The notes under the pieces are model-generated. The model made no database searches. It was given only the letters and a program-made list of their open reading frames with translations, and was not told where the DNA came from. Shown piece after piece: positions 3,943 to 42,766 of a stretch of 64,000 nucleotides of DNA. The position numbers were made by a program, and so were the translations under genes. Position 1 is the stretch's first letter. The number at the start of each line of letters is the position of its first letter. This stretch comes from an uncultured bacterium (GTDB lineage Bacteria > Babelota > Babeliae > Babelales > Babelaceae). The DNA is taken from assembly GCA_963819815.1 (NCBI GenBank), contig CAWFXL010000001.1, positions 1,248,001 to 1,312,000 of the forward strand. Direction: 5' to 3'.

Positions 3943-4044
3943 AAGAGGCTATTCTTATAGTGCTTCTCTTTGCATATCGGTAGTGGCACATTAGTTCAGT
4001 ACTATCCAAAAATTAAGCCTGTACTTTCGTGGACAATTCATCTC

Positions 4045-5067
4045 TTACTCTTTCGCATCGAAGAAACGAACGAGGAGTTCTGCAAGTTTATTCGGTTCAT
4101 CTGAGAACCAAGCGTGACTTGCCCCTTCGAGTTCATATATAGGAATTCCCATCAATTCAATTCGATGCCAATCTTCTCCGGAAATTTTAATAGGATCTTT
4201 CGCGCCTTGCAAAACTACGAATTTGTCGCTGTAACGCGATGCCGTTTTTTCTTGATTCTCATAGTTTCCTAGTTGACTTTGATTATGTAAAGCTTCGAAC
4301 CCAAACTTGATCATAAAATACCGTGCTTCTGGATCTGTTCTCGTACCAGCCCTTCTAGTTAATTCAGAAGGAGCCAGACCGCCAAGACTGTGAAAAGTTT
4401 CAGCTTGTTGTTCAGTGAATGTTTCACGGAACGACAATAAGTCAAATACCGTCTTGCCTGCAGGAAAGGGATCAGTTGTAGGAAAGGTTTTCAAGGCAGC
4501 GAAACCTCGAGCTGCTTTCTCGAAGTCATTGATGGGTGTTCCGGTTAGTGTAACTTTTTTGATTGATGGCTCCTCAGCAACCATGTCAATTGCTACATGC
4601 CCTCCTAAGCTCCAGCCGCAGATTTCCAATTCTTTAGGATTTACTTTTACGACTTTTAAGAAATGGACGAGAGAATGGGCATATCCTGGAAAAGTGTAGT
4701 ATGATTTGTGAGCCCGGAAAATATCATTTTCATGGTCTTTGAAATAGTGACGTACATTTTCTGGAAAATTGCTACTTTTTCCATGTCCAGGTAGATCCAC
4801 AGCAAGTACACGAAAGTCTTCCAAGGCTGGATTCTTAATAATTTCGCCGAATGCTTCTTTAGAAGCTGAATTTCCATGGATAAGCAGGATGACTTTCTGT
4901 TTATCCGGATGAGCTTCTAAATAAGAAAGCTTCAAATCGTAGGACGAAACTCCCGGGACGTTTCCATCATCCAAATGAACAGTGTCAGTCTTTTCAATGA
5001 CACAGGCTGACGATGACGATGCTTTTGATAGTAATAGGAGTAACGCGAATGCTGACTTCTTGATCAT
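4045..5067 (-). CDS. Secreted alpha/beta hydrolase
   Basis: Signal peptide; LIHGNS, DLPGHGKS, GWSLGG nucleophile elbow, C-terminal Asp (GAKD) and His (ASHA). Confidence 0.9.
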   Translation of the reverse strand: MIKKSAFALLLLLSKASSSSACVIEKTDTVHLDDGNVPGVSSYDLKLSYLEAHPDKQKVILLIHGNSASKEAFGEIIKNPALEDFRVLAVDLPGHGKSSNFPENVRHYFKDHENDIFRAHKSYYTFPGYAHSLVHFLKVVKVNPKELEICGWSLGGHVAIDMVAEEPSIKKVTLTGTPINDFEKAARGFAALKTFPTTDPFPAGKTVFDLLSFRETFTEQQAETFHSLGGLAPSELTRRAGTRTDPEARYFMIKFGFEALHNQSQLGNYENQEKTASRYSDKFVVLQGAKDPIKISGEDWHRIELMGIPIYELEGASHAWFSDEPNKLAELLVRFFDAKE

Positions 5068-5304
5068 GTGAATTATCCTTCAATAGATTACATTATAATA
5101 ACATATTTTGCTGTGCCTTATAATGCCTTTGTGATATCGATACAAAGTAGCCTGAATGAGTCAGGGTTGTGACGAACTTTAGTGCTCATGAGGAACCCTG
5201 TGCTAAGATGATAGATTCATGACATTTACAAATTTCAATATCAATTGTAACAAAAGTTGACAGGGTCGTCAAACTTATTTTATAAATGAATAAACGATGT
5301 ATCT

Positions 5305-5374
5305 TTTGGGGCTTGGAAGAAAGAATATCCCTGAGATCCTGGATCGATTAGATCGATTTGTGAGGAAGCTTTAA
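5305..5374 (+). repeat. Direct repeat copy 2: orphan duplicate of the aminotransferase 3' end
   Basis: Encodes LGLGRKNIPEILDRLDRFVRKL* versus LGLGRKNVPEILDRLDRFMRKL* in the intact gene. Confidence 0.9.
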
Positions 5375-5460
5375 AAAAAGCTATACTTAGTAGTGCTTTT
5401 CATTGTACACGGTTAGTAGCATACTACTTCTGTACTATCAAAAACATTGAGGACACGTAT

Positions 5461-6027
5461 ATGAACTACTTATATCTTACTCTTTGCTTATTTTTTGCAG
5501 CAGGAACTGGGTGGTGTTCAGGATCGAAAAAAGACCTTTTTAAAGCTGGTACTGTGTATGACAAAGATGGGAGTACTATTTCTATTGCATGGCCAAATCC
5601 AAAAGAGATAGTTATAGATAAAAAGTTTGCGATACCCCAATTCAAAACAGAGTGTTGTTTGTTTGCAGCACTCATGTCAGCCTTCATGTCAGGATCTATA
5701 GCATTCATGACACTTCAGGGCAAAAGAATTTGGGGGGTAAAAGCTACCTATACCGAGCTCATTTCCCAGATAGGCGCAGTTATTGGCTTTGGATTAGCCA
5801 CAAGATGGCTTACCCATAAAGCATTCTCTTTGAATCGGGTTGAGAGAGAGGGTATTGAACCGGCAAGAAAATTTGCAGACGATCTCTATGGAAAAGTCTA
5901 CCACGAACTCTACTACGAAATATCACGTATAACATGTATTACATCAGAAGGTCGAAATTTTAGTACGTTTCCAGGATTACGTTTCCTTGCATTCCTTGCA
6001 GGCGTCAAAAGTGACGAAGCAAAATAG
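5461..6027 (+). CDS. Hypothetical exported/membrane protein
   Basis: GAGGA RBS, signal peptide, two hydrophobic segments. Confidence 0.7.
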   Translation: MNYLYLTLCLFFAAGTGWCSGSKKDLFKAGTVYDKDGSTISIAWPNPKEIVIDKKFAIPQFKTECCLFAALMSAFMSGSIAFMTLQGKRIWGVKATYTELISQIGAVIGFGLATRWLTHKAFSLNRVEREGIEPARKFADDLYGKVYHELYYEISRITCITSEGRNFSTFPGLRFLAFLAGVKSDEAK

Positions 6028-19146: not shown

Positions 19147-20130
19147 TTACGAAGGAGCTTCACATCTTTGAAGGGCTCGTTTTGTCTTATAATATGAAGA
19201 GCGAGGAATGTACTTCCCTTTAAGTTCTCTGTCATGTATAAACTCTGGAGGAAGGCCGCAAGGGGGGATATTGATCGTATATAAATTACGACAGGTCTCA
19301 TAGCCCCCATGAAGTGCTCTTTCATATATCATCTGTACAAGGCACGGAATATTCTTAATGAATCGAGAAAGCATGATGCCAAGATGCCCAGGGCTTTGGC
19401 GATCTTGGAGTACACGAGTTTGCATAATATTAGGGGCTGGATCAAAAGTTCTCGCTGACAAAAACGGTATCTTGGTGTCTGCAGGTGAGTACGCATAAGA
19501 TTCCCAATAGAGGCCTTGAGGATCTCCGATCTGAAGGAAATCTGAAGTTGAGTAGAAGGTGTATACCTCTTTGAAAATCGGTGCATGTATTAAATGTTTG
19601 GTAACAATCTGTACCGGCGGTGCCAGCATAATTAACCTATCAACCTTGAATGAACTATTTTGGTCTTGTTCTGCAAGGGATGCTAAATAGAGAGCAACGC
19701 TGCAGCCATGGCTGTGAGCCATAATAGTAAGGTGCCCCTTATGGTTTTTAATAACGTTATAAAGCCGCTCGGCCGCGTGTGTTCTTGAAGGGAAGTTGAG
19801 CCTTCCATGCCATCCATAAAAATAGAAGGTATCCAATGCAAATTCTTCGGGACACGCTATTGCGAGGGTATGCGCGATACGTGAGAGTACCGAGCTAACA
19901 TTAATTGTCGATGCCTGTACGACACCATACGGGTAATCAAGTTTATGTACTAATTTCGATATGATAGATTCTTTTGTTCCATGAATAAAAATTGTAGCCC
20001 GACCATCGGGAACTGGCCCTGCAAGAAATACCTTTCGTTGGTATAGTTTGCGTTTATTGTAGTAGTTGCTTTGCTTGCAACTAGGAATCAATAACGTGAT
20101 GATGCAAACAGTAAGAAGACGGGCATACAT
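19147..20130 (-). CDS. Exported alpha/beta hydrolase-fold protein (possible lipoprotein)
   Basis: FIHGT, AHSHG elbow, LAPPVQ; lipobox-like LIPSC. Confidence 0.75.
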   Translation of the reverse strand: MYARLLTVCIITLLIPSCKQSNYYNKRKLYQRKVFLAGPVPDGRATIFIHGTKESIISKLVHKLDYPYGVVQASTINVSSVLSRIAHTLAIACPEEFALDTFYFYGWHGRLNFPSRTHAAERLYNVIKNHKGHLTIMAHSHGCSVALYLASLAEQDQNSSFKVDRLIMLAPPVQIVTKHLIHAPIFKEVYTFYSTSDFLQIGDPQGLYWESYAYSPADTKIPFLSARTFDPAPNIMQTRVLQDRQSPGHLGIMLSRFIKNIPCLVQMIYERALHGGYETCRNLYTINIPPCGLPPEFIHDRELKGKYIPRSSYYKTKRALQRCEAPS

Positions 20131-20139
20131 GGTGTAAGG

Positions 20140-21093
20140 CTACTGCTTTCGTCGTTGCTTAGTACTCGGTTTGTGAGCTTTCATAATACGCCTTTCCTGT
20201 TTTTTTTCAATCAGATGAGGTAAGTGTCCTTGAAAGGGCACCTCAATGATAACGTGCTCACTGTTCCGAGCTTGAGGCGTATCGAGCAGTTTAAGAATAT
20301 GCGGTAACTGTCCAAAAAATGGTGGCAATATAAAATCTCTATGGCTTGGATTACGTTCTCCGAAGGTAATCTGTGCTTGGGTAAGGCGCGGCCCTGGCGC
20401 GTAGGCGCGCTTTGAAAAAAGTGGTAGCTTCTCCTTTCCCTTTCTCATTTCCTTGTTTATCCCTTGAGGATCTGCAACCTGTATGACATCTGCGATAGAA
20501 TAGCAGGAATATACTCTCTTAAAGTTGGGTGCATGCACGAGATGAGTGGTAGCTTCTTGGACCGGCGGTGCAAGGAGGATGAGCCGTTCTAGGGTAAGGG
20601 GTGAGACATTGCCAAGAGCATCTTTTTGTTCCGCACATTCAGCAAGATGCAAGGCAACATTGCATCCATGACTATGTGCAATAAGAGTGCAGGGACCTTT
20701 ATGATCCTTCAGGAGATTAAAAAGCTCTTGAGCGGCCTTTTTTCGTGCTGACAGGGTAAGCTCTCCGGACCAGTAAAACTTATAGTAACTTTCAAGGGGA
20801 AATTCGTTGGGAGCAGAGTTGTACAGTGCTCTTCCGAGCCGTTGTCGCGTAGTTAATCTTCGGGGATTTGCTGAATAGTGGTACAAACCGCGCCGCTTTT
20901 CATGGTGGCCCAAGAGGCGTGAGACGCCAGGGAAAACAGTTCCATGTATAAAGATTGTTATGCTGCCCTCTTTGAGTTGTGTACAGGGAGTATGGCAGGT
21001 ATCTAGAGGGGTTGTTTGCTTAGGGGCGCAATTGATCTTATGAGAGAGAGAAAAAAGGGTCGCATAGATAAAGATTCTGAATAGTTTTTGCAT
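20140..21093 (-). CDS. Exported alpha/beta hydrolase-fold protein, paralog of 19147-20130
   Basis: Signal peptide, FIHGT, AHSHG, LAPPVQ, DPQG. Confidence 0.75.
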   Translation of the reverse strand: MQKLFRIFIYATLFSLSHKINCAPKQTTPLDTCHTPCTQLKEGSITIFIHGTVFPGVSRLLGHHEKRRGLYHYSANPRRLTTRQRLGRALYNSAPNEFPLESYYKFYWSGELTLSARKKAAQELFNLLKDHKGPCTLIAHSHGCNVALHLAECAEQKDALGNVSPLTLERLILLAPPVQEATTHLVHAPNFKRVYSCYSIADVIQVADPQGINKEMRKGKEKLPLFSKRAYAPGPRLTQAQITFGERNPSHRDFILPPFFGQLPHILKLLDTPQARNSEHVIIEVPFQGHLPHLIEKKQERRIMKAHKPSTKQRRKQ

Positions 21094-21223: not shown

Positions 21224-21922
21224 ATGGAAAATGACGACACTACTTCTAGACAGTCAACAAAGGAGAGGCTCTTACAAGAGTATAAGCAACTAATAACTCC
21301 TGAGAGACGCGTTTTACTAGAATCGCGTATACAAGAGAGGACCCGCTATATTACGGTGGTGCTTGAAGATCTGTATCAAGCACATAATTTGAGCGCAATA
21401 GTTCGCACGTGTGATTGTTTTGGTATCCAGGATGTCCATATTATTGAAGAAAGACATCAATTTAGTCTTTCTAAAGGCATCGTAAAAGGGGCGGAGCAAT
21501 GGCTTTCTCTTAAGCGCTATAGAGTGCGACAATCTCAGGATATCGGTGAGAATTTTGCACAGCTGCGCAACAATGGCTATACGATTGTTGCAACAACTCC
21601 CCACAAGAATGATACCCTCATTAGTGAATTGCCTCTTGATAAAAAAGTAGCGTTGGTTTTTGGTACTGAACGAGAAGGACTTAGCGCCTATGCCCTTGAG
21701 CATGCAGATGCCTTTGTAAAAGTCCCACTTTATGGGTTTACTGAGAGTTTTAATGTTTCAGTGTGTGCTGGCATTGTCCTGTACGAGCTTACTCGAAGGC
21801 TGCGGCAGTCGGAAATCGACTGGCATCTAAGCGATGAAGAACGTATCGATGTGCAGCTCCAATGGTTGATACGGACGACTCCATTTGGAGATATCCTTAA
21901 GAAAAAGCTTGAGTTGCTTTAA
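21224..21922 (+). CDS. TrmH/SpoU family RNA 2'-O-methyltransferase
   Basis: HNLSAIVRTCD, VFGTEREGLS, PLYGFTESFNVSV. Confidence 0.93.
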   Translation: MENDDTTSRQSTKERLLQEYKQLITPERRVLLESRIQERTRYITVVLEDLYQAHNLSAIVRTCDCFGIQDVHIIEERHQFSLSKGIVKGAEQWLSLKRYRVRQSQDIGENFAQLRNNGYTIVATTPHKNDTLISELPLDKKVALVFGTEREGLSAYALEHADAFVKVPLYGFTESFNVSVCAGIVLYELTRRLRQSEIDWHLSDEERIDVQLQWLIRTTPFGDILKKKLELL

Positions 21923-22026
21923 CGGCCAAACCTTGGAGGATTGTTTTTCTAGGGCACTTTCTACAAAGACCGGTCTCAATTCTAAGCACTCAGCTCATCT
22001 ATGGAATATTTTTATAGATTATATGT

Positions 22027-22200
22027 ATGAGAAAACACGTTCAGGAGTGCGTTGGCCAATTTGTACCTCTTTTTTTGAAACCTATTCTGAAGTAAGGGTG
22101 GCAAAGAGTTTAAGAAAGGCGCTTGGATTAACTACCAAAAGAGTAGGGTCCAGTCTATAAAGCAGAAACTGTAGCCATTGTAAGTTGCATATTCTACCCT
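22027..22200 (+). pseudogene. Decayed copy of mobile mystery protein A
   Basis: MRKHVQECVGQFVPLFLKPILK*GWQRV / RKALGLTT----KRVGSS aligns with MRNQVQDTIDQFGSLALQPVPKVGWLRIVRKALGLTTLQLAKRVGSS of 23934-24410; has a stop, a frameshift and deletions. Confidence 0.8.
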
Positions 22201-22260
22201 TTTTTGATGAAGGAGTGGTTAATATGACTTTGTCCATATCCTATGCATTTTCTAATTCTT

Positions 22261-23496
22261 CTATTTCTTTGACAATTCGAGCTCTTTATTTTTCTTTGCT
22301 TCGCGCCGCAATTCTTTCATTTTTTCATTTTCTCTCTCGAGACGTTGAATTTCTTTTCGCAACTTCATTTTTTTAATTTCTGGTGCGAGATCAAGAACTG
22401 TTTCTAATTCTTCTCGAGAAAGGGGTAGTTTAGCCAGATCATTCACTTTATCATTCACCTTCATCGACATAAAATTGATCGTACCATCATCATCAGACAA
22501 TTCTGCTTGGATTTGCTGCATAAATTTAACTATTGCTCGTACGTGCCAATGTCCAGCGTAAAAAACTCCTAGCTTAGCAGAACGCGGAGTCATAAAAGCA
22601 TTCAGGCTATCGATTATCCAGGGCAAATTAACTATCGCATAGTACTGTTCGGAAAAAGCGTCAATTGTATGAGCAAAACTTCTGGTGACCATATCAATTA
22701 TTTTTTTCTGTTCAGCTGCAGGTAAGGTTGAAAAACTTTCTACCAAACCGGGATACTGACTGCGAGCATAGTTGTAAATAATTTTCAGGATTGATGTATT
22801 ATTAAGAGGATTGCCAGAAGCATAACGGTTAAAAAACTCTGTAAGAGCTTTTTTTGCAATCAATGCGCTTTCTATTTTTTCATTCAGTATCTTCTTAGCT
22901 GCTTGGTATAATGTATCAGGCAGTTCTCGTGAAGCTCTTTCAAGAAATCTCGCGTATCGATCAAGTATGGTTTGATTGTCTTTTTCAAACGAAGAAAGCA
23001 GATCTCTTTTATAAAGAAATTCCCCATTGCTTTCTAACGATCTACGTACCGAATCTTGCAAGAGGCTTTTTAAAAAAATATCCCACACGTAACTGTTGCG
23101 AGGATCGCTCGTTTCAAAATGTATCGCACCCTTAAGACCTTCTTCTTCTTTGAGATTATCCATAAGAATACGTAACTTTGTGATTACCTTTGTAGCTTCC
23201 TGCCGTTCTTTTAGAGTGTCTTCATCTAGCCTATGATAGAATGCTTGAGTCTCGGCTACAGTTTCGAGGTTTAAAAGAGCCCTACCCGGTTGTTGGGCGA
23301 CCACTTTTAGAAAGGAGCGTAGAGTATCGTACTGATCTAAATCATTGATTGTACGTTCATGACGATCGCCAAGGAGTATAAGCGTTCCAAGGCCATCAAT
23401 CTTAATCCTGTATCCTGAAATAATAGCTGCATTTAGCTGGTGTAGGGGAAGGACCACTATAATGAATCTAAATATAAGTCTGGTGAAGGTTATCAT
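22261..23496 (-). CDS. Secreted protein, possible TIKI/EreA/ChaN-like fold, with basic coiled-coil tail
   Basis: Signal peptide; LLGDRH...LNLE...DPR...FYAGHWH; Lys/Glu-rich C-terminus. Confidence 0.6.
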   Translation of the reverse strand: MITFTRLIFRFIIVVLPLHQLNAAIISGYRIKIDGLGTLILLGDRHERTINDLDQYDTLRSFLKVVAQQPGRALLNLETVAETQAFYHRLDEDTLKERQEATKVITKLRILMDNLKEEEGLKGAIHFETSDPRNSYVWDIFLKSLLQDSVRRSLESNGEFLYKRDLLSSFEKDNQTILDRYARFLERASRELPDTLYQAAKKILNEKIESALIAKKALTEFFNRYASGNPLNNTSILKIIYNYARSQYPGLVESFSTLPAAEQKKIIDMVTRSFAHTIDAFSEQYYAIVNLPWIIDSLNAFMTPRSAKLGVFYAGHWHVRAIVKFMQQIQAELSDDDGTINFMSMKVNDKVNDLAKLPLSREELETVLDLAPEIKKMKLRKEIQRLERENEKMKELRREAKKNKELELSKK

Positions 23497-23806
23497 AACT
23501 AGTATTTCCTTTCAAAATCCCATTAGTGCCTGCTATTGCTATAGTCTGGGTTAAGTTTTCAGAGCCAATTATATTTTCTTATTATACAAACTCTAAACTG
23601 TCTTCTTTTAACAAAGAAAGAGGATGGTAGATCTAGAGTGTCACACATGGTATTAAAAGTCAAATATTTATCAATCAACATTTTCAAATAGTGCAACTTG
23701 TGGACGCATGCTTTTCGTTTTGCTGGAGTGAAGGAATTGCGCAGATTACATGGGAACTTCAAGGGCTGTACGAACGACTCCCGTTAAGAAAAGCTTGATG
23801 TAAATT

Positions 23807-23931
23807 TATAACCTATAGGTTATATTTGTGAACTATTTTATAACTTATGGGTTATAAATATTGACATTTTGCTGCAATAAATATAACTTATAGGTTATAT
23901 TTATGAACCATTTTATAACTTATAGGTTGTT
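23807..23931. promoter_or_regulatory. Four 18-bp palindromic operator-like boxes around a TTGACA hexamer
   Basis: TATAACYTATRGGTTATA-like boxes start at 23807, 23839, 23882 and 23914; TTGACA at 23861-23866. Confidence 0.85.
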
Positions 23932-23933
23932 TT

Positions 23934-24410
23934 ATGAAAAAGTCTTTTAAAAAATTAATGCGTAATCAAGTTCAGGATACCATTGATCAATTTGGGTCAC
24001 TTGCTTTACAGCCTGTTCCAAAGGTAGGCTGGCTACGTATTGTGAGAAAGGCTCTAGGTTTAACTACGCTGCAACTGGCGAAGAGGGTAGGGTCAAGCCA
24101 AGCAAATATCACAAAGGCAGAAAAAAATGAATCGGAAGGTAGTATTAGTTTAAAGACGCTAGCACGTATTGCCGAGGCTATGAATTGTAAGTTTGTATAT
24201 TGCATTGTGCCTATTAAGCCTATAGAAACTATATTAGAAGAGCGGGCAAAGCGCATTGCTAAAAAACGTATTCAAGTTATAAATCATTCGATGAGCCTGG
24301 AATTGCAAGGTCTTACACCTGAGCAGTTGAAAGCTCAAGAGGAAAATCTGGTGGACGAGTTGCTTGCGGGGAATCTTAAAAAACTATGGGAAGATGATTA
24401 TGAGGTTTAA
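23934..24410 (+). CDS. Mobile mystery protein A (XRE-family HTH)
   Basis: GWLRIVRKALGLT, HTH, AEAMNCKFVY, HSMSLELQ, KKLWE; paired with a Fic gene. Confidence 0.9.
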   Translation: MKKSFKKLMRNQVQDTIDQFGSLALQPVPKVGWLRIVRKALGLTTLQLAKRVGSSQANITKAEKNESEGSISLKTLARIAEAMNCKFVYCIVPIKPIETILEERAKRIAKKRIQVINHSMSLELQGLTPEQLKAQEENLVDELLAGNLKKLWEDDYEV

Positions 24411-24897
24411 GAATTACAACGGAGCAACTCCACTTGATCCTGTTGAGTTACATGAGCTCATTCCAGAGCACCTTGTTACGCAAGAGGAGCTAAATGCCTG
24501 GGAAGAAAAAAATATTCTAAAGGCGAGGCAATGGGCTGGAAGATTTCGAATATCAGAAAGGAATCTTGGTATAAATTGGCACGCAATTGCCGCTGAAGTA
24601 AAAAAGCTCTGTGATGACACACATTTTCAGCTAGCCCACGCTACTTTTAATGATGATGAGGTAGCTGTAAGGTTTCACCACCGGTTAGTTTGGATTCATC
24701 CATTTCCCAATGGTAACGGTCGGCATGCGCGTTTAATGGCAGACCTGCTTATTGTGCAGCTCGGACATCTACCATTTAGCTGGGGATTGTATCAGAAACT
24801 GTCAAGTCCTACTCCAATTAGAAAGCATTATATTGAGGCATTGCAGTTAGCTGATCGAGGTGACTTTTCGAAAATACTTGCTTTTGCCCGATCTTAG
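24400..24897 (+). CDS. Mobile mystery protein B (Fic domain), apparently with an internal deletion
   Basis: GATPLDP, ELNAWEEKNI, intact Fic motif HPFPNGNGRHAR, FARS* end. Confidence 0.88.
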   Translation: MRFKNYNGATPLDPVELHELIPEHLVTQEELNAWEEKNILKARQWAGRFRISERNLGINWHAIAAEVKKLCDDTHFQLAHATFNDDEVAVRFHHRLVWIHPFPNGNGRHARLMADLLIVQLGHLPFSWGLYQKLSSPTPIRKHYIEALQLADRGDFSKILAFARS

Positions 24898-24925
24898 CAA
24901 TAACTTCAGCTGCTGGTACAAATTT

Positions 24926-24967
24926 CCATATGGGGATTCAATTAAGAAAAAGCTTGAATTGCTTTAG
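24926..24967 (+). repeat. Orphan duplicate of the trmH-family gene 3' end
   Basis: PYGDSIKKKLELL* versus PFGDILKKKLELL*; 34/42 nt identical; its stop overlaps the ybeY stop. Confidence 0.85.
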
Positions 24968-25428
24968 CGTTGCAATCTTCCGGGCAGCTTTTTCAAAATA
25001 GAATCTTCTCGGGCTTGCATAACAGCGTATTGTTCATCGGTTTCATGGTCATAGCCAAGTAAGTGACAAATCCCATGAATAGTAAGAATCATCAGACGAT
25101 GTTCATAGGTAACTCCCAAGTTCTTTGCTGAATGCACGATATATTCTGGGGAAAGGATAAGATCGCCGAGATTTTTTTCATCCTCGTGAGTAGTCGCTAT
25201 TTTCGTGCCGGGGGTGGTGTGTGGGTGATAGGCGAATGATAATATATCAGTAGGACCTTTTTTATATCGGTACGTTTCATTATACCGTTGTATTGTTCTA
25301 TTCGTGGTTATGAGAATTCCAATGTCAAAATCTTGATAGGTAAGTATCGTGAGTATCTCTGTGATAAGCTCAGTAAGCCACTGTTCATCAAGAGGAACTT
25401 TTCGTTGGCGATTGATAAGTGTAATCAT
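24964..25428 (-). CDS. ybeY: rRNA maturation RNase YbeY
   Basis: PTDILSF, LGDLILS, HGICHLLGYDH. Confidence 0.95.
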   Translation of the reverse strand: MITLINRQRKVPLDEQWLTELITEILTILTYQDFDIGILITTNRTIQRYNETYRYKKGPTDILSFAYHPHTTPGTKIATTHEDEKNLGDLILSPEYIVHSAKNLGVTYEHRLMILTIHGICHLLGYDHETDEQYAVMQAREDSILKKLPGRLQR

Positions 25429-27882
25429 ATGCTCAAGGTAGCTTTCCAGGTACCATTCTCTTCTGAAAGCTGAGGTGCTAGAGTATCAGGTACAAACGTT
25501 ATGCTCGCAGCTTTGCTAATACCTTTAATAAGGGCACCATTCTTTTGTAGCTGCTGTCGTAATGCAGCATCTTGGCATCCGATTGTAAGCGTCGTTAAAT
25601 CTGTTTTTAAGGACAGCTGCTGTTCAGATTTGAGCTTTCTAACCATCGCTATAACGTCAATAATATGACCCATGATCTGAGCTGACTCAGGATAGTCAAA
25701 TGCTTTCTGATACGCAGCAAACTTGGTCATATGAAGAGAAGGGCTTGCAACTTCTTTTTGGTAGAGCTCTCCGTAGAGTGCTTCGGTAACATGCGGTACG
25801 AAAGGAGCATAAAGCTGCAAGATACGTAATCCTATATGAGAGAGTGTCCAACGGGTTGCTTGCACTTCCTCTTGGGGATAGGTATCAGGATTGAGTAGTT
25901 GATCCTTACTAATTTCTACGAAGTTATCACAAAAATCATGCCAGAAAAACTGTTCAATAGTTGCAAGTGCTAAGCTAAATTCATATTCCTCAAAGTACTG
26001 CTCATACTTTCTTTGGCAGGTACTCATACTGTTGAGTAACCATTCATTCGAGACACCAAGACTTTTGGGTGCTGGAGCCTTCAGAGAAACGCCTTGGATA
26101 TGAGGTTCAATAAATCTAAAAGCATTCCAGAGCTTAACGAGGAGTTTGAGTCCGATCTTTATCTGATTTTCTGAAAATGAGATATCATGGCCAAGCCCGC
26201 CTGATGCAGTCCAATAGCGTAGAGCATCTGCAGGATAGTGCTTTAAGAGCTGTTCGGGAGTTAAGGGGGTATTCCCTTGTGATTTTGAGATTTTCTCTTT
26301 TTGCGGAGATAGTACATGTCCTGATATAACAATAGTTTTCCAGGGGATCGACTCATTGTGAAGCCATGATTTAACGATAGTATCGAATGCCCAGGTTCGA
26401 ATAATATCATGAGCTTGTGGGCGCATAGTCATGGGAATAAAGCTTTGTGCCGATTCTTCAAAGATGCTGGGCGTTAAAGGCATACGCAAGCTTGCACAAA
26501 TGTAGGGTGTTAGGCTTGACGTATTCCAAGTATCCATAACATCTGTATCGGGCGCAAATGAGGTTCCTCCACACGAACAGGTACCCTGGAATGGAATTTC
26601 CTGGGGATCTATGGGCAGTTGGTCTTCTTGTGCAAGGACTACTTCTTTACACTGGGTACAATGCCATACGGGAAATGCTATCCCATAAAATCTTTGGCGC
26701 GAGAGGCACCAATCCCAGCTGATGTTTTCTACCCAATTTACGTATCGTGCTTTCATGAATGATGGGTACCACTCAACTTTTTCTCCTACCTGAATAAATG
26801 TTTCTTTGTGGGGCAATAGGGCGAGAAACCATTGTGGTAATACCAGATATTCGATCTCTTTTTTGCAGCGTTCATGAACATTGACCGTTTGCTTATGTGG
26901 CTGTTGTCTTCTAAGTGAGCCTTCTTTTTCAAGAAGTTCAAGAATAGCAGCTCGTGCTGCGGGAACGCGCATTCCTTCAAGAGGACCAGCTGCAGCACTA
27001 AGTTTACCATCAAGGCCGATGATCGGCTTATATTTAAAGTGATGTGTCTTAAACCAGATCACATCAGTCTTATCACCAAAAGTTGAGCACATTACGAGCC
27101 CCGTTCCCTTTTCAGGATTTACCAAAGGGTCAGCTATAAGGGGAACTTCGAACTTATAGTAAGGAACCGTCGCCTTCCTTCCTGCAAGATGCTGAAAGCG
27201 TGGATCGTCTGGATGATATAAAACGGCAGTTACGCGCAGCAAGTAATTCGGGTCTCGTCGTAGCAATGATAAGCTCATCACCATCTGCCGTGAAAACAAG
27301 GTCATTGAATGTTGTCTCTTTTTCAAGATCATCCAGTTCTGCTTGTGCAACCGTCGTGCGACAGGTGGTGCAATAGAGTGCCGGCTCATCCTTTCGATAG
27401 ATATGGCCTTTTTTGTAGAGCTTGATAAATGAAAGCTGTGAAATATAGCGCGACCGCTCATCAATTGTTGAGTAGCATGCTTTCCAGTCTACTGAGAGTC
27501 CGATGGAGCGCCATAAGGTTTCAAACTGTTTTTCTACCTCGGTTGTTTCCTTAAGACATAAAGCAATAAACTCTGAGCGCTTCAAGGAATATGCTTGTAC
27601 ATCAAGTTTTTTTTCAACGTATTTCTCGGTGGGAAGACCATTGTCGTCAAAACCAAAAGGATAGAAAACGCTATTGCCCTTCATCCGAGCATACCGTGCG
27701 ATTATATCGGTCTGTGTATAGGAAAACAGATGTCCAATATGTAAAGAACCAGAGACTGTAGGTGGGGGAGTATCGATCGAATATAAAGGCCCTGGATTAT
27801 TTTCAGTACTATATACCTTATGGGCTTCCCATAACTTTTGTGCTTCGGGTTCTGCTTTCAAATGATCGTAATTTTTTTCCAT
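25425..27882 (-). CDS. valS: Valine--tRNA ligase (archaeal/type 2), split by a one-base frameshift near 27235
   Basis: DTPPPTVSGSLHIGH, ATTRPELL, DWCLSRQR, MRPQAHDII, KISKS; span 2458 nt = 3n+1. Confidence 0.93.
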
Positions 27883-28052
27883 AGTATCTCAGATAGGGTA
27901 GGCGTTTTCGTATTCTTACTAAGGATATCGTACTGGGAGAATTTGACTAGCCATTCCAATTTCATTGCACAATTTGACAATAAAATTAGCAATGTTACAT
28001 TTATAAAAGTATTATGCGAAATAATAACCGTACCTAACAGAAAGATCGGACC

Positions 28053-28646
28053 ATGAATGCTAAACTATGTGCCTTGCTTTTAACTGTAGCAGCTGTTTCT
28101 TCGACATATTCGATGAATGACGTAAAGGCAATACCTGTTCCACCAACAAGCACCCATCCAAGCGAAAAATCAAATTTTATACTTGAGGATGAAGTAAAAA
28201 AGTTATTCTACCAACCTGCGGCCCTGCGAGAGTTGGCCGAGCCAAATAAGAGAGAGCTCTATAGAGCATGTCTGCAGCAAATTATTGAGAACCCTCAAAT
28301 GGTACATCAAGATATGCCCGACGCAATCAAGAAATTTCCTCTTTATGTGGCCATTCTTCACCTAGCTCAAGAACACGTATCCTGGGCTATGATCAGGGCT
28401 TTTGGCCTTGAAAGAGAGAAGAATGCTTTGGTACAAAAAGAAGCGGATCGTAATGTAGAGCGCAGTGTTGTATCGGAGCTAGAAAATGCTTACCAGGCCA
28501 AGTTCGACAAAAAATTGGCGGACTTTCCTAAAGATGCAGAGAATGAGCTCATTATTAGAGCTAGCACTGAAGCTGCTAAGGTGATGCTCAACTTTCTTGT
28601 GTCTATGCCACCGCTGACTTTATTTACAATTCGTGGATCTCATTGA
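28053..28646 (+). CDS. Secreted hypothetical protein, tandem paralog A
   Basis: Signal peptide ending STYS|M; about 76% identical to paralog B by manual count. Confidence 0.85.
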   Translation: MNAKLCALLLTVAAVSSTYSMNDVKAIPVPPTSTHPSEKSNFILEDEVKKLFYQPAALRELAEPNKRELYRACLQQIIENPQMVHQDMPDAIKKFPLYVAILHLAQEHVSWAMIRAFGLEREKNALVQKEADRNVERSVVSELENAYQAKFDKKLADFPKDAENELIIRASTEAAKVMLNFLVSMPPLTLFTIRGSH

Positions 28647-28822
28647 TGGGTTAACGGGGAAACGATTTTTCGAAAGTTTGACTATCATGGGTTTGATTAG
28701 ATCTTTGCTTTGCCCTTTCCAATCCCATTGTACAATTTGACAATAAAGTTACTAGTGATACATCTATAGAAGTATTATGTGAATAATAATGGCTTTTACC
28801 TCAATACCGGAAAGAACGGTCT

Positions 28823-29416
28823 ATGAATACTAACATATGCGCATTGTTTTTAAGTATAGCAGTTGCTTCTTCGACATACTCGATGAATGACTTGAAAACG
28901 ATGCCTGTTCCACCAACGAGCACTCATCCAGCTGAACAATCCAATTTTACACTGGAGAACGAAGTAAGACAATTATTCTGCCAACATGCGGCGCTTGAAG
29001 AGTTGGCGAAGCCAAAGATGAGAGAGCTTTATAAAGCATGTCTGCAGCAAATTATCGAGAACCCTGCAATGGTTCATCAAGATATGCCCGACGCAATCAA
29101 GAAGTTTCCTCTTTATGTCGCCATTCTTCGCCTAGCTCAAGAACATGTAAGCTGGGCTATGATCAGGGCTTTTGGTCTTGAAAGAGAGAAGAATGAGTTG
29201 AGGCAAAAAGAAGCGGATCCTAGTGTAGAACGCAGTGTTGTAAGGGAACTAGAAAATGCTTACCAGGCCAAGTTCTCACAAAAATTGGAAGAGTTTCCTG
29301 AAGATGCAAAGAGTGAACTCGCTATTAGAGCTAGTACTGAAGCTGCGAAGAAGATGCTCGACTTTCTTGTGTCTATGCCTCCTCTAACGTTGGTACGAGT
29401 TCCTAGCTCTAACTAA
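28823..29416 (+). CDS. Secreted hypothetical protein, tandem paralog B
   Basis: Same length (197 aa); upstream TTGACA-containing region also duplicated. Confidence 0.85.
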   Translation: MNTNICALFLSIAVASSTYSMNDLKTMPVPPTSTHPAEQSNFTLENEVRQLFCQHAALEELAKPKMRELYKACLQQIIENPAMVHQDMPDAIKKFPLYVAILRLAQEHVSWAMIRAFGLEREKNELRQKEADPSVERSVVRELENAYQAKFSQKLEEFPEDAKSELAIRASTEAAKKMLDFLVSMPPLTLVRVPSSN

Positions 29417-29687: not shown

Positions 29688-31217
29688 TCAGCATGGTTGC
29701 CCGGAGAAAAATTCAGTATACCCTGGATCTTGGTCACTCGGGATACGTATACTTGCGATAACTTGTGCTCTATCAGATAGTCCAGGCTCTGGAGTTCCCG
29801 ACCGTTTAAGTGAAACTAAAGGCGAATCTGAGGTAAGCTGAGAGCTTCTTTGGATTTTCCCAAGACTCATATGGGGCGGTTCTTCAGATGGATAGGTTCT
29901 TTTTGTTCCTTTAGGAAGGATAGCAATTACCGAATTATAGACCTCATCTATGAAACTATCATAGCCAGCTGGCTCTTCATACACAACAGTGACATATTTG
30001 CCGAAGATTTTAAGCTTATCCCATCTAAAAGGATGATCTTGAGAAAGGCTTGCTAATTTCGCCGTAACCATATCCAGACCGTTATGCTCAATCGCTTTTA
30101 AAGCAGTGCAAGCTTTCTGTTCATAACTTCGCTGATCACCACTTCCAAGAGGTATAGATACATAGGCAAGCGAAATATGCATATCCTTTTGGTCAACTAC
30201 CGAATCTAATGTTTCAGGTATCGATTGTGATATGGTATTCTGCAGAAGGGTATCGGCTAAGGCGCGTTGGGCTGCTCGATATGATGCTTTAGGCACGAGC
30301 TTAAGCACTACATGACCATAGACTATTCCGCCCTGATCCTTCAGAAACTGTATAATTTTTGGATGATCCTTCTTTTGTACCTTAGCTTGAATAGCTGAGG
30401 CTAGTGGTGTTATCATTTTTCGATCAGTTTTATTAATATCTGCTCCATTTCTTACGAGTAAATCAACCATCTCATAAAAACCGTCGCGCGCTGCAAATGA
30501 TAAAGGGGTGTTGCCATGAACATCAGCCTTATCGACATCGCAGCCTTTCTTGATGAGTAGTCTCATTAGGTAAGGGTAATCTGTACGTACTGCTTTGAGT
30601 AAGAGGCTGCTTCCAAACGTATCAAGTGCTCCAATCAACTCAGGGTGAGCAGCAAGAAGGGTTGCCACTGAACCAACATCTTGCCCCTCAATTGCTTTTA
30701 TAATGTTATTATACGGGGTCTTAAGCTGACCAAGATCTTTATACTCGATGAAGCGTATTTGCTGCGCACTGCTTGAGCTGCTCGTTGCTGATTGAGCCAC
30801 AGGAGCTTTTACTGGTGCTTGCCCTAACAGGAGGTTCACCATCTCCTCATTATTGCTACCTAACGCAAGAGACAAGGGTGTTTCATCCTTACTATTTTCC
30901 TGATCCGGATCTGCACCAAGCCCGATTAAAGTTTGAGCAACTTTTCTAATGTTCTTACTGACTGCATAGTGAAGAAGCGTATTATTACCAGAATCCATAA
31001 GACGAATCAGCTGTTTATGTGCAGCCAAGATCGGCTCTACAGCACTATTCTTCTGCGCAGGCGTAAGAGAGGCGTCATTCAATATTTCTCTAATCTTATT
31101 AAAACTATCTTTTGTAGGCCTTTGCGCAGACGACCAGGCTTGCATCGCCAGACTTTGCCCCACAAAGCTCCCCGTTGCTAAAACTGTAACAAGCAGGACC
31201 TTCAATTTCCATTTCAT
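29688..31217 (-). CDS. Secreted ankyrin-repeat protein with C-terminal 2H phosphoesterase-like domain
   Basis: Signal peptide; ankyrins (NTLLHYAV, TPLSLAL, GNTPLSFAA, TPLASAI); HISL and HMSL motifs about 100 aa apart. Confidence 0.85.
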   Translation of the reverse strand: MKWKLKVLLVTVLATGSFVGQSLAMQAWSSAQRPTKDSFNKIREILNDASLTPAQKNSAVEPILAAHKQLIRLMDSGNNTLLHYAVSKNIRKVAQTLIGLGADPDQENSKDETPLSLALGSNNEEMVNLLLGQAPVKAPVAQSATSSSSSAQQIRFIEYKDLGQLKTPYNNIIKAIEGQDVGSVATLLAAHPELIGALDTFGSSLLLKAVRTDYPYLMRLLIKKGCDVDKADVHGNTPLSFAARDGFYEMVDLLVRNGADINKTDRKMITPLASAIQAKVQKKDHPKIIQFLKDQGGIVYGHVVLKLVPKASYRAAQRALADTLLQNTISQSIPETLDSVVDQKDMHISLAYVSIPLGSGDQRSYEQKACTALKAIEHNGLDMVTAKLASLSQDHPFRWDKLKIFGKYVTVVYEEPAGYDSFIDEVYNSVIAILPKGTKRTYPSEEPPHMSLGKIQRSSQLTSDSPLVSLKRSGTPEPGLSDRAQVIASIRIPSDQDPGYTEFFSGQPC

Positions 31218-39557: not shown

Positions 39558-40413
39558 TCAACAGTTGTCAGTCTCTTCGATCTCATCTGGTTCAACCTTC
39601 ATACCTAACTTTTGAGCGAGCCCCTTGTTGGATGGGAAACAGATAAAAAACTTGTTAGAAACTTCATTAAAGTAAGTTACTTCATATTCACTAAAGAATT
39701 GGGGACATCTCTCTAAGAAAAAATTGATAAATACAAGATCCCTCAGTATCCAGTTTCTAAGTTCCAACAAACTGCTGCTCGTTTTTCTTGCAGGTTGAGC
39801 GAATGAACATTCAATGTGTTGTAAAAGATTATCACTATAAGCTAAAATGCCACCCAAAGGGTTTTTAGCACTATTTGTTTTCCAAAGAGGCCGGTATGCG
39901 CCTACGGGATACCTTTGACTTTTGAGCGTAAGCTGTCTTGCAAGAACTCGTATCATTTCTGGGTCGGCATCTTTTAACCTGTCTAGATTGTCGTGAGCAA
40001 AGTACGGATGATCAAGCGTAAACCAGGAAGGAAAGTCCCACCGGTTTCTTACATTTGCTACAAAATCAGCAGTAAGTTTGATCCTATCATATTCTTTTTT
40101 TTCTACATCACTTAAACGTTTTCTATTTAAACTCAATAGATCGTGCGAAGCGGCTTCTAAATGCGCTGGCAACACCCTCATTGTCTATGGGATGTTGAAG
40201 AAGTGACATCACTACTTCCCTTACATCGGCCAGTCTCACAGTTACTGGCAGTTGTTTTCTCTTTTCCATCCAAGTACTATGATCAATTGCACTTTCAAGG
40301 TAACCCGGGGGTGTAACTGCCGTTTCTTCTTTGACCATTGTCATAGCCGATTCAGAGCCAAAGATATTTGAGTTAACAAGTAATAAAGCGGATAGAACTA
40401 AGTGCTGTTTCAT
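39558..40413 (-). pseudogene. FGSE-family secreted protein, frameshifted near 40176 (or sequencing error)
   Basis: MKQHLVLSALLLVNSNIFGSESA start; removing one G in GAGGGTG joins ...HPIDNE to VLPAHLEAASHDL, matching HILDAALEDL of the paralogs; 856 nt = 3n+1. Confidence 0.75.
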
Positions 40414-40493
40414 ACCTAACCTTCTTTTGTTCAAAGATTTTCGATCAAGTATAATTTTTCTAAAGGGTTCTGCAACAGGACGTGGTCTAAAAC

Positions 40494-41021
40494 TCACGTC
40501 AATCCCGTATAAATTAAGCAGACAACTGCCACACCTAGAAATAGAGTGCATGTTTGATAATCATCAATGATAGAGTATCTTGGTTGTAATGCTCTAATTA
40601 AATCAGTCTTTAGATTATTGCTTATTGGAAGTGGGCGTCCTCTATTTATTTTCGCCACAAGGGCAATTCTTATCAGTGTTGAGACATCCTCTACGCCCTT
40701 GGAACTTAACTCAGATTGATTGTGAAGCCATAAATCTGCAAGGTCTTCACATGCAGCATCAATAATATGATCTTTTGGTGCATCGTTGCTATTAAGAAGT
40801 GAAAGAAATAGAATCCTTGCATGAGTCAATCGGATATCTGCCGAGATTGTTTGTCTCATTTCCAACCAAGCTTGAGGAGTCTCTTTATTATAATTTGCAT
40901 AACTTGCGACTCTAGCAGGGGAGACTGGTTCAACGGTCTGATGTGCTGTGGTAGTGTGTTCAGATCCAAAAATACTCGAGCTCCCAAGGAGCACTACCGT
41001 TAGAATGAGATGTTTTTTCAT
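40494..41021 (-). CDS. FGSE-family secreted protein with C-terminal TM
   Basis: MKKHLILTVVLLGSSSIFGSE, ASYANYNKET; ATGA overlap with upstream paralog. Confidence 0.85.
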   Translation of the reverse strand: MKKHLILTVVLLGSSSIFGSEHTTTAHQTVEPVSPARVASYANYNKETPQAWLEMRQTISADIRLTHARILFLSLLNSNDAPKDHIIDAACEDLADLWLHNQSELSSKGVEDVSTLIRIALVAKINRGRPLPISNNLKTDLIRALQPRYSIIDDYQTCTLFLGVAVVCLIYTGLT

Positions 41022-41626
41022 AATAGATGAAGATGAAAGCCTGTCATGTACCCAAGCAAGCCGAGAGCTACCAGAATTGAAAAGGCGGTGCAGCAATTGT
41101 CTGCTTTGATTTCACGTTTATGCTCTGCTTTAGCGACAGTAGGGGTTCCGGTTTGTAGTAACATTCTACTTAGTTCAGCTTTTTGATTGTCCGCTAGAGG
41201 AGCTCCCCCTGCCTTTAATTTAAAAGCAACCATTGTTAACATTCCAAATTCCTTAAATTCCTTGTCCCCGAATTGTTCGTCCTTGAATGCCTCGTCATTT
41301 GAGTATTCATTAGTCACTAATAGACGATATACACCTATAAGGTCTTCAAGAGCAGCATCAAGAATATGATTGGGCACACTGTTGCTATGAAGAAGAGAAG
41401 TGAGGAGAGCTGCTTTTGCTTCAGCCATTCGTGTAACCACTAGGACCGCTTCTCTCTTTTTCAACCAAGTTTGAAGAGTATCTTTGCTATAATTTGCATA
41501 ATTTGCGGTTCTAGCAAAAGTGGCTGGCACAACAAGGTTGCGCGTTTTAGGTTTAGTAGCCGACTCAGATCCGAAAGCATATGGGCTTCCTAGGAGCACT
41601 ATTGCTAGAATAAGACGTTTTTTCAT
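41018..41626 (-). CDS. FGSE-family secreted protein with C-terminal TM
   Basis: FGSESAT, ANYANYSKDT, HILDAALEDL. Confidence 0.85.
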   Translation of the reverse strand: MKKRLILAIVLLGSPYAFGSESATKPKTRNLVVPATFARTANYANYSKDTLQTWLKKREAVLVVTRMAEAKAALLTSLLHSNSVPNHILDAALEDLIGVYRLLVTNEYSNDEAFKDEQFGDKEFKEFGMLTMVAFKLKAGGAPLADNQKAELSRMLLQTGTPTVAKAEHKREIKADNCCTAFSILVALGLLGYMTGFHLHLL

Positions 41627-41816
41627 GGATAATCCTCAATTCAAAATGATTTCTTTGGGGCTGCATGGAACAAAATGCCTGTTTTTGCTTGTGCAGCTTT
41701 CGATCAAGTATAATTATTCTAAAAAGTACTGCAATGGGCACCTTTTAGTCAGATGCCCGTTGGTATTAGTCGAACGTTTAGTGTTCTGATCAAGAGTAAT
41801 TGTTCTCAAGAGTGCT

Positions 41817-41850
41817 TCAATTGGCACACCTCAAGAAGTGTGCCAATTGA
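41817..41850 (-). terminator. Hairpin downstream of 41867-42511
   Basis: TCAATTGGCACAC...GTGTGCCAATTGA 13-bp stem. Confidence 0.7.
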
Positions 41851-41866
41851 GTTAGCTAAAGATGTT

Positions 41867-42511
41867 CTAGTACTGGCGTAAGAGCGTATCTTGAAACTTA
41901 TAATAAATGAATTGCCATAGTATAGCGCTTGCCAAAGCTACATACAATCCATGCCCGATCTCATGATACATCAGATCGTATTCGCTGAGGTTATGTGTTG
42001 CCATCCAAATTGCAAAGCTGGCAACATAGACGCCAATGGTCGTTTCTCGCAGTGTTAACTTTCTATTAGACAACTGGGACTGTAATAATGAATTTACCTG
42101 AGCCTTTTGATCCTCCGTTAGAGGAAGCCCTGCCTGTGCTATCCTAGCGACTTCCGTTAGCCTGCTAAATTCTCTTACTTCCGCGTCATTTAGCTTAGAG
42201 TTATCAGTGATTCCGAGATGATATAAACCCGTAAGGTCTTCAATTAGTGCATCAAGAACATGCTTTGGTGCATTATTGCTTCGAAGAAAAGAAGTGATTA
42301 GAATCTTTGCCTCAGCCAATCGAATAGCTACAGGTACTGTATCTCTCGTTTCCAACCAAGCTTGTCGAGTCTCTTTGCTGTAATTTGCATAACTTGCGAT
42401 TCTATTGTCAGCTACTTGTTCAACGTTTTGACGTGCTGCAGTGGCCGATTCCGCTCCGAAAATACTTGAGCTCCCAAGGAGCGCTGTAGCTATAATAAGA
42501 TGCTTCTTCAT
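41867..42511 (-). CDS. FGSE-family secreted protein with two C-terminal TM segments
   Basis: FGAESAT, ASYANYSKETRQAWLETR; start moved to ATG 42511. Confidence 0.85.
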   Translation of the reverse strand: MKKHLIIATALLGSSSIFGAESATAARQNVEQVADNRIASYANYSKETRQAWLETRDTVPVAIRLAEAKILITSFLRSNNAPKHVLDALIEDLTGLYHLGITDNSKLNDAEVREFSRLTEVARIAQAGLPLTEDQKAQVNSLLQSQLSNRKLTLRETTIGVYVASFAIWMATHNLSEYDLMYHEIGHGLYVALASAILWQFIYYKFQDTLLRQY

Positions 42512-42557
42512 AATAATCCTTAATGTAGAATGATTTCTTTTTGAACTTAATATAGCA

Positions 42558-42586
42558 AGTATAATAATTCTAACTGAAAGTGTCAA
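42558..42586 (-). promoter_or_regulatory. sigma70-type promoter
   Basis: TTGACA-17 nt-TATACT on the minus strand. Confidence 0.8.
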
Positions 42587-42730
42587 ATTCTCATTTATGA
42601 CAGCCTGGCGATCGTTTTTTGTCTGTGTTTGATCGGTGTTTTCATTAAAAATAAACCCTGTCTTCTTGACTAAAAAATTCAGGAAACCTTTGAAAGAGGA
42701 AGGTAATGATTACAGAGTCACTAAGCACCG

Positions 42731-42761
42731 CAATGGGTACCTGATTAAAAGGTACCCATTG
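42731..42761 (-). terminator. Hairpin downstream of 42767-43336
   Basis: CAATGGGTACCT...AGGTACCCATTG 12-bp stem. Confidence 0.7.
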
Positions 42762-42766
42762 TGATG

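Follow-up and report, generated by a model that had tools for sequence, protein, structure and literature searches.

The trmH–ybeY interval

The stretch of DNA considered here (the window) covers 64,000 nucleotides (nt) of the genome of an uncultured bacterium of the family Babelaceae (assembly GCA_963819815.1, contig CAWFXL010000001.1, positions 1,248,001 to 1,312,000), and all positions below are counted from its first letter. In this window the gene trmH, which encodes a TrmH-family (SpoU) RNA 2'-O-methyltransferase, and its convergent neighbour ybeY are held apart by an interval containing repeated copies of the trmH tail, genes of the mobile mystery A/B type and one cargo gene. The interval may represent two small related islands that were integrated one beside the other in the end of trmH and are now decaying. 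The features of the interval are as follows.

21224..21922, + strand: trmH-family (SpoU) RNA 2'-O-methyltransferase gene, the target gene (Pfam SpoU_methylase, 7.2e-33)
21857..21949, + strand: copy 1 (C1), the working end of trmH, in which a 16-nt block lies, and then about 27 nt similar to the 3' end of ybeY
22000..22164, + strand: pseudogene of mobile mystery protein A (A'), about codons 1-57, with an in-frame stop, a frameshift and a 4-codon gap (tblastn E 1e-5)
22261..23496, - strand: cargo gene of 411 amino acids (aa) with a signal-peptide-like N-terminus, belonging to a rare family
23568..23597, - strand: promoter-like site upstream of the 411-aa gene, TTTAGA-18-TATAAT, 10/12 positions, a consensus match only
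23757..23798, + strand: copy 2 (C2), a degenerate trmH tail interrupted by three gaps (1, 12 and 1 nt)
23807..23931: four 18-bp palindromic boxes TATAACYTATRGGTTATA, presumed A/B operators, flanking a TTGACA hexamer at about 23863 (by eye)
23934..24410, + strand: mobile mystery protein A, Xre-type helix-turn-helix, full length (TIGR02612 150.4 bits, cutoff 122.6; HTH_3 7.5e-10)
24394..24897, + strand (start at 24394 or 24400): mobile mystery protein B, Fic domain, with an in-frame internal deletion of 28 residues (TIGR02613 175.1 bits)
24925..24994, + strand: copy 3 (C3), a displaced trmH tail followed by the working ybeY 3' end, lying inside the hairpin 24932-25008
24964..25428, - strand: ybeY, the convergent neighbour (TIGR00043 125.6 bits, cutoff 45)

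The best NCBIfam match of the trmH product is TrmH at 110.8 bits, which is below the cutoff of 227 for that family; the C-terminal tail of the protein is kept in 18 aligned relatives (55-80% identity). From the end of trmH to the ybeY stop the distance is 3,041 nt, and the trmH-ybeY arrangement as a whole occupies 4205 nt. The interval is richer in AT than its surroundings, the GC content being 0.365 and 0.356 in the two 1-kb windows of 22001-24000 vs 0.40-0.46 in the neighbouring ones.

C1, C2 and C3 all have the same orientation and split the interval into two segments, each opening with a mobile mystery A gene. Segment 1 extends from about 21950 to 23756 (~1.8 kb) and segment 2 from 23799 to about 24924 (~1.1 kb). 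The second of them contains only the four palindromes, the A gene and the B gene. The layout is thus tandem, and not nested as had been proposed in the original prediction, a reading of the same DNA made by a model from the letters alone.

Copies of the trmH tail

The C-terminal end of the trmH product is PFGDILKKKLELL followed directly by the stop (in longer form, TTPFGDILKKKLELL), and 21922 is the end of a functional gene, as first supposed. C3 carries the peptide PYGDSIKKKLELL with its stop (in longer form, FPYGDSIKKKLELL) at 24926-24967 in the trmH orientation, and its TAG (24965-24967) overlaps the convergent ybeY stop by 2 nt. The tails of C1 and C3 are identical at 34 of 42 nt without gaps. 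In a search over the whole window on both strands, the local alignment of the trmH tail with C3 scored 53; 200 dinucleotide shuffles of the query gave 26.3±2.1 with a maximum of 36, so that none of them reached this score. The next-best place for the trmH tail elsewhere in the window is at the chance level (score 26, reached by 123 of the 200 shuffles).

The similarity between C1 and C3 has a sharp left edge at 21880/24925. On the other side it runs in register 27 nt beyond the stop into the 3' end of ybeY (15/27 identical, P about 8e-4 against random window positions). Since the similarity passes the stop and enters the last ybeY codons, the duplicated unit is the trmH/ybeY junction and not the trmH tail alone. 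Overall, the two copies are 71% identical over 70 nt, with a longest exact match of 16 nt. This 16-nt block, TTAAGAAAAAGCTTGA, lies at 21897-21912 in C1; it is exact in C3 and lacks one A in C2. The sequence 3' of the block is different in the two outer copies, reading GTTGCTTTAA... in C1 and ATTGCTTTAG... in C3. The displaced tail of C3 keeps its frame and stop: of its 8 differences in 42 nt, 3 are silent or change one stop into another, and none is a frameshift.

C2 corresponds to 21857-21912; of the 42 positions that can be aligned, 37 match and 5 do not, and C2 starts 23 nt further upstream in trmH than C3. Its similarity stops exactly at the 3' edge of the shared block, where the operator boxes begin. 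The C2 score of 35.5 was reached by 2/150 shuffles window-wide and by 0/1000 within the interval on the + strand. C2, anticipated as a degenerate remnant at about 23770-23798 and now placed at 23757-23798, is probably real by these alignments while being the weakest element of the array. When a profile of the relatives' TrmH C-termini was compared with the six-frame translation of the window, C3 was recovered at E=2 only, yet as the best non-self match of 3895 peptides; C2 was not detected by this profile, which is too short to be informative.

The C-terminal tail of the closest relative was considered as a means of recognizing the native copy. It does not distinguish the candidates, C1 and C3 each matching 10 of 13 residues by eye.

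The trmH/ybeY junction at 24932-25008 can form a long imperfect hairpin of -21.2 kcal/mol (z -1.98; 6/200 shuffles fold as well or better), which may serve as a two-way terminator. The idea of the hairpin or terminator as the insertion target was rejected because neither C1 (z -0.90) nor C2 (z -0.05) stands out, and no terminator-like site was found at the repeat copies.

Mobile mystery genes A and B

The A gene of segment 2 is intact, residues 6-154 of its product covering profile positions 2-150 of 150 in TIGR02612. The protein resembles Xre-type repressors and, weakly, HipB-type antitoxins. The palindrome TATAACYTATRGGTTATA gives 8 strand-wise matches vs 0.24 expected, and none of 100 shuffles reaches 8; the palindromes are found only on the left side of A/B. 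A may bind the four boxes as its operators.

The start of B overlaps the end of A at 24410. B matches TIGR02613 at 175.1 bits vs a cutoff of 124.4, in two separate stretches, and retains the Fic loop HPFPNGNGRHAR. It had been described as intact. However, it is short of 28 consecutive residues that are kept in 10/10 aligned homologues, including the two closest ones (72% by BLAST). The lost block carries 8 nearly invariant columns (W, I, F, H, M, F, T, W), and the deletion is in frame and lies between two tryptophan codons. B is 165-167 aa long here vs about 192-195 aa in the homologues. With the loss of so many conserved residues, the Fic protein is probably crippled, while its partner A and the operators are preserved.

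The decayed A gene of segment 1 was also recognized correctly in the original prediction. A' and the corresponding part of A (23933-24104) are identical in 115 of 178 alignment columns (score 46.5; shuffles 12.7±1.9), and 46 mismatches fall in the 161 aligned positions. No operator boxes were found upstream of A', and no remnant of a second B gene was found anywhere in the window at E≤1. The A genes have the same orientation in both segments and lie 88 nt (A') and 135 nt (A) from the shared block.

The A/B pair has the layout of an Xre-Fic module, with small overlapping genes, the DNA-binding partner first and palindromes upstream. Besides its own family, B matches Fic AMP-transferases and the candidate phage-defence family PDC-S04 (PADLOC, 9.8e-18). 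Prediction of the A-B complex gave a score of 0.44 vs 0.00 for the best of 3 controls, with contact agreement between runs of at least 54% and a partner pLDDT (predicted local distance difference test) of at least 84. The mark used for such scores was reached by 116/157 solved complexes and 2/215 mismatched pairs, and scores of 0.60 or lower comprise only 18 of the 157 solved complexes plus both mismatches that passed, so that 0.44 is weak support for the interaction. A/B is probably a toxin-antitoxin-like addiction or defence module. By eye, no S/TxxxE(G/N) inhibitory motif was seen in A.

Adjacency of Fic/Doc and Xre genes has been listed among toxin-antitoxin-like pairs with 22 occurrences (PMC2701414). 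The Xre-Fic/Doc modules, including TIGR02612/TIGR02613, share with the pair at trmH the helix-turn-helix gene overlapping a downstream Fic gene and the palindromes upstream; the B copy at trmH differs in the missing 28 conserved residues. No experiment on the mobile mystery protein family was found in the literature searched.

Homologues of A occur in 258 plasmid records (Agrobacterium, Rhizobium, Vibrio, Coxiella, Rickettsia, Megaera and others) and in 0 records of the phage collection. In two of the three plasmid loci examined, those of Rickettsia asiatica and Megaera, A/B lies between traG and the coupling-protein gene, within the conjugation region, and on the Megaera plasmid RelE/ParE and MazF modules adjoin it. 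Convincing direct repeats flanking A/B were found in none of these three loci, drawn from the 258 matching records, although the original prediction had proposed to look for duplicates of this kind beside other mobile mystery loci. From the plasmid records, the empty result in the phage collection, the position within conjugation regions and the lack of flanking repeats, A/B looks like the cargo of larger conjugative or otherwise transferable elements and not like a self-moving unit. The array at trmH is accordingly no trace of how A/B itself moves, contrary to what had been suggested.

The 411-aa cargo gene

The 411-aa gene has a GC content of 0.382 (z -2.16), the second lowest of 55 genes compared. 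Its product matches no family in Pfam, NCBIfam, PADLOC or PHROG at the thresholds used, and a looser Pfam scan (E up to 1) of the protein together with 6 relatives gave scattered matches only, at E 0.008 or worse. Seven relatives were found among 1.84 billion representatives. The gene had been introduced as one for a secreted protein; it is present and its N-terminus is signal-like, being hydrophobic and ending in ...LNA/A, with a pLDDT below 50 for residues 1-22. By these features the protein may carry a signal peptide and be secreted.

The structural model, built from the rows of the 7 relatives, is confident, with a pLDDT of 81.2 and a predicted template modelling score (pTM) of 0.78. It has no fold match in PDB at E≤0.001. 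In BFVD it has 15 matches at this threshold, all to predicted proteins of giant viruses, at template modelling scores (TM-scores) of only 0.22-0.44. A language-model search with the protein also led to giant-virus clusters, in which about a fifth of the members carry DUF5847 (score 0.91). The predicted fold of the family thus resembles uncharacterised giant-virus proteins. One of the BFVD matches is named 'TraB family protein', and conserved LLGDxH and YAGxSH motifs can be seen in the family by eye. A TraB/Tiki-like hydrolase fold would be a guess from the GDxH/AGxSH motifs and this single name, useful as a lead only.

Parallel junction duplication

A similar event, which the original prediction had placed at 3873-5444, is present in the same window.

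3873-4053 and 5305-5485: duplicated junction segment of ~180 nt, 148/188 columns identical, longest exact match 22 nt

The segment runs from the last 70 nt of an aminotransferase gene (2815-3942) across the spacer into the following gene, of which it takes in ~25 nt. Its two copies flank a single alpha/beta-hydrolase gene (4045-5067, - strand), and there is no A/B module in this event. The displaced aminotransferase tail (5305-5374) keeps its frame and stop; among its 5 differences in 69 nt, 2 are silent, 1 replaces a stop by a stop and 2 are conservative (V/I and M/V).

A search of 61 genes for a repeat of each gene's 3' end further downstream gave four scores of at least 51, the next best being 31. 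These four belong to trmH and ybeY (the same repeat seen from two sides), one tandem paralogue and the aminotransferase gene. A recombination core common to both events was rejected; only AAGCTT is shared, which occurs at 47 sites in the window, and the cross-alignment score is 14.

The locus in relatives

A scan of genome contigs with the TrmH alignment gave, among the matches listed, 80 loci with 44-54% TrmH identity, mostly labelled Bacteroidota. The relatives with 75-80% TrmH identity and the genome of the window itself are absent from these loci. In flanks of up to 7 kb, none of the 80 distant trmH loci had ybeY, A, B or the 411-aa gene, which says little about the clade of the window.

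The sizes of the source contigs served as an indirect measure of gene context. The 119 other TrmH matches and the 119 other YbeY matches listed have 18 contig sizes in common, including 3506, 4542, 5026, 7762 and 8542 nt as well as those of the four closest relatives. In the control comparisons, TrmH and B shared 1 size, and YbeY and B shared 3, all of ~1-1.3 kb and one of them too short for both genes. From the shared sizes of 3506 nt and above, trmH and ybeY would be linked within a few kb across the clade. The shared contig of 3506 nt is too short for the 4205-nt arrangement of the window. Contigs of 1497 and 1722 nt, considered at one stage as cases of tight trmH-ybeY adjacency, were withdrawn as being at the chance level set by the controls.

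None of the contigs of the four closest relatives is found among the best 120 B matches, which suggests that these relatives may be without this B gene. One YbeY match (P0294) and one B match (P0206) from the same source both lie on a contig of 1093 nt, just able to hold the two genes. This coincidence is either chance or a second case of B adjoining ybeY in a distant relative.

Origin of the array

The interval is best explained by two related addiction-module islets that would have been inserted in tandem at one 16-nt core in the trmH tail, with a recombinase that has since been lost, and that would now be decaying. The probability given to this explanation is about 0.5. According to it, two related small islands would have integrated successively, in the same orientation, at the same short site within the last trmH codons, each carrying an A/B module next to its attachment (att) site. 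At least one of them would have brought its own version of the trmH tail, so that the gene stayed whole and the displaced native tail was left beside ybeY. The recombinase would have been a site-specific integrase, encoded on a larger original element or supplied in trans; its loss would have left the islands stuck and decaying. The upstream island would have been reduced to the first third of A and the cargo gene with the signal-like N-terminus. The downstream one would keep the operators and A, with B short of its 28 residues. In these terms, C1 would read as trmH, core and island 1 arm; C2 as island 1 arm, core and island 2 arm; and C3 as island 2 arm, core and native remainder. What is deduced here, and not read directly from the alignments, is the integrase-mediated entry, the assignment of sequences to the elements and the addiction function.

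The 16-nt block fits a crossover core since it is common to three co-oriented copies and since the similarity of C2 ends at its 3' edge. The nearness of an A gene to the block in both segments is what would be expected of related elements sharing one att site. Furthermore, A' and A have diverged far more (115/178) than C2 and C1 (37/42), which speaks for two separate acquisitions and against a recent duplication of one unit. Frame and stop are preserved in the displaced tails, and silent changes occur in them, which suggests that the copy diverged while still in use elsewhere.

The original prediction had inferred at least two rounds of insertion, each bringing a replacement 3' end. In outline this was right, with insertions that would have duplicated the gene tail at a reused site. 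The order of the events cannot be read from the structure, because the final arrangement is the same whether the second island entered the left copy or the right one. For the same reason the last copy cannot be singled out as the ancestral end, as had been proposed; had the islands been integrated in this way, ancestry would be confined to what lies right of the crossover in C3.

Several observations weigh against two integrations of this kind. No family of integrases, excisionases, relaxases, recombinases or transposases was matched by any open reading frame (ORF) scanned in the 64-kb window, and with islands of only ~1.8 and 1.1 kb the recombinase is wholly inferred. No tRNA gene or other classic att target is nearby. 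The repeats take in the ends of the genes on either side (~180 nt in the parallel event), beyond what the repair of a single gene would need, which also fits homologous recombination. The ybeY-like part of C1 has lost the stop, and 3 of its 14 codons match YbeY. C2 is only moderately significant across the window, and the argument from silent changes rests on just 13 differences in both events. For the close relatives, what the shared contigs indicate is linkage of trmH and ybeY and not an empty site between them. Finally, no related and still complete element with this att site was found, metagenome and viral contigs lying outside the search. The term integrase-free, used for the hotspot in the original prediction, is correct for the ORFs scanned as a description of the present state. 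It does not describe the arrival, as integrase-less relics with att repeats on either side are known (PMC7563491).

The absence of a recombinase match and the repeats reaching into both gene ends in both events would be accounted for by an integrase-free insertion of the Campbell type, in which a circle bearing the cargo together with a related strain's version of the trmH/ybeY junction is taken up by host homologous recombination, the same repeats allowing later excision. The displaced tails do look like alleles that once functioned in a relative, the window contains radA, and a generic host mechanism would cover the second event, which is without A/B. However, exact matches of only 16 and 22 nt and identities of 71% over 70 nt and 148/188 offer homologous recombination little to work with, unless the copies diverged afterwards. 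The similarity of C2 ends abruptly at the block instead of fading, and the origin of the first circle with a junction and cargo is not explained. Such an insertion is considered unlikely. Its generalization, namely that small circles with one cargo gene and a conserved gene junction integrate and excise by host recombination as a general integrase-free way of passing genes between relatives, appears somewhat less likely still.

That there was just one insertion, whose tail-A-B unit was then duplicated through unequal crossing-over, after which the upstream unit decayed and gained the 411-aa gene, is about as improbable as that generalization. The two units agree in orientation and layout, unequal exchange is favoured between direct repeats, and the several tandem paralogue arrays of the window indicate that duplication is common in this genome. 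A recent copy of one unit is nevertheless hard to reconcile with 46 mismatches in 161 positions between A' and A vs 5 in 42 between C2 and C1, with the lack of operator boxes upstream of A', with the different spacing from the core (88 vs 135 nt) and with the lack of a second B remnant. Insertion of a transposon or insertion sequence was rejected, as there is no transposase family match, the palindromes occur only on the left of A/B and the duplications measure 42-180 nt. It could also be supposed that gene ends rich in lysine codons and in A resemble one another by chance, the interval being ordinary lineage-specific DNA. This could draw on the frequency of AAGCTT, on the weak result of the protein profile for C3 with C2 missed, and on the chance-level score of the second-best trmH-tail match. 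Against it, no shuffle reached the C1-C3 score, C3 is placed precisely against the stop of ybeY, the match keeps its register beyond the end of the trmH tail, and a downstream copy of this quality was found for 4 of the 61 genes only, namely the trmH/ybeY pair, the parallel event and one tandem paralogue. For the array as a whole, chance is a very remote explanation, and for the outer copies C1 and C3 the alignment statistics can be taken to exclude it.

Comparison with known systems

The closest known counterpart of the C1/C3 pair is the element e14 in icd of Escherichia coli K-12. A C-terminal fragment pseudogene with conservative differences, icdC, is found at the far end of e14 (PMC13626634). 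In both cases the element occupies the 3' portion of a housekeeping gene and the working gene runs into the element, as trmH does with C1, C3 beside ybeY taking the place of icdC. The element e14 is a cryptic prophage of about 15 kb with a site-specific recombination system of its own, and SOS induction leads to its excision. The trmH segments, in contrast, measure 1.1-1.8 kb, have no recombinase match and no phage gene that could be found, and their A gene has no match in the phage collection. C3 is a displaced, co-oriented 3' fragment at the distal end, as in the icd case; a recombinase encoded by the element, also part of that case, is not found.

The decayed state of the segments is closer to that of the cis-mobilizable elements (CIMEs). 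In Streptococcus, integrase-less CIMEs of 1.2-13 kb lie in tandem, two or three together, where the genes fda, rpsI and rpmG have their 3' ends (PMC7563491). Like the segments at trmH, they are decayed elements in arrays at the 3' end of a conserved gene, having kept att repeats and cargo and lost the genes for recombination and transfer. C1-C3 show the same combination of retained repeats, a lost recombinase and at least two tandem units at a gene 3' end. Those CIMEs were found beside a live integrative and conjugative element (ICE) or integrative and mobilizable element (IME) whose integrase recognises the same sites, whereas no such partner is present in the 64-kb window. The host here is unrelated, and the likeness to CIMEs is read from the repeats and the lost genes; derivation from an ICE or IME is not part of it.

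Other genes of the window

Just upstream of trmH, at 19147-21093 on the - strand, there are two tandem paralogous genes, both with signal-like N-termini. Their products show weak alpha/beta-hydrolase matches (Tle3 phospholipase at 1e-05, DUF900 and Ser_hydrolase). Three tandem paralogue arrays are located at 39558-43541, 27951-29416 and 51957-54150, with nucleotide identities of 62-87%. Most of their genes have no family match, and the pair at 52-54 kb has DnaJ domains.

The valine-tRNA ligase gene valS (25425-27882, - strand) is split into two overlapping ORFs of 242 and 679 aa, which cover profile positions 6-223 and 218-790, respectively. The frame changes near 27235-27250, outside any homopolymer run. 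Either this essential gene carries a true frameshift or the assembly is wrong at this place. In the second case, single-base differences elsewhere, such as the missing A of C2, deserve caution.

Genes with eukaryote-like or defence-like domains occur at 29688-31217, 54435-55925, 60388-61596 and 61972-63915. Ankyrin repeats are found in two of the encoded proteins; a third has a MYND zinc finger at its C-terminus, and another, of 647 aa, has a SocA/Panacea antitoxin-like domain. The host is apparently intracellular, and the ankyrin, MYND and SocA/Panacea-like domains would fit such a lifestyle.

Implications

For the annotation of this genome, the 35-codon ORF at 24860-24967 and the 91-codon ORF at 21885-22160 are to be treated as scars and not as genes, and B is best marked as carrying a deletion. 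The type of scar is itself already known, being the usual mark of integration into a gene end, and the trmH case is in this respect a further and fairly ordinary example.

If small recombinase-free circles carrying a gene junction were indeed at work, the two scars in 64 kb would be what can be seen here of a process acting across the genome, by which this lineage of apparently intracellular bacteria would pass genes for signal-bearing proteins and addiction modules between relatives. If, on the other hand, two related islets were integrated in tandem, as is preferred here, the trmH tail would join the 3' ends of protein-coding genes that are used as attachment sites. The locus would then illustrate, in a small genome of 1.6 Mb that encodes ankyrin and MYND-finger proteins, how integrated elements erode until a repressor gene, one cargo gene and a crippled toxin gene are left, with the attachment scars still in place.

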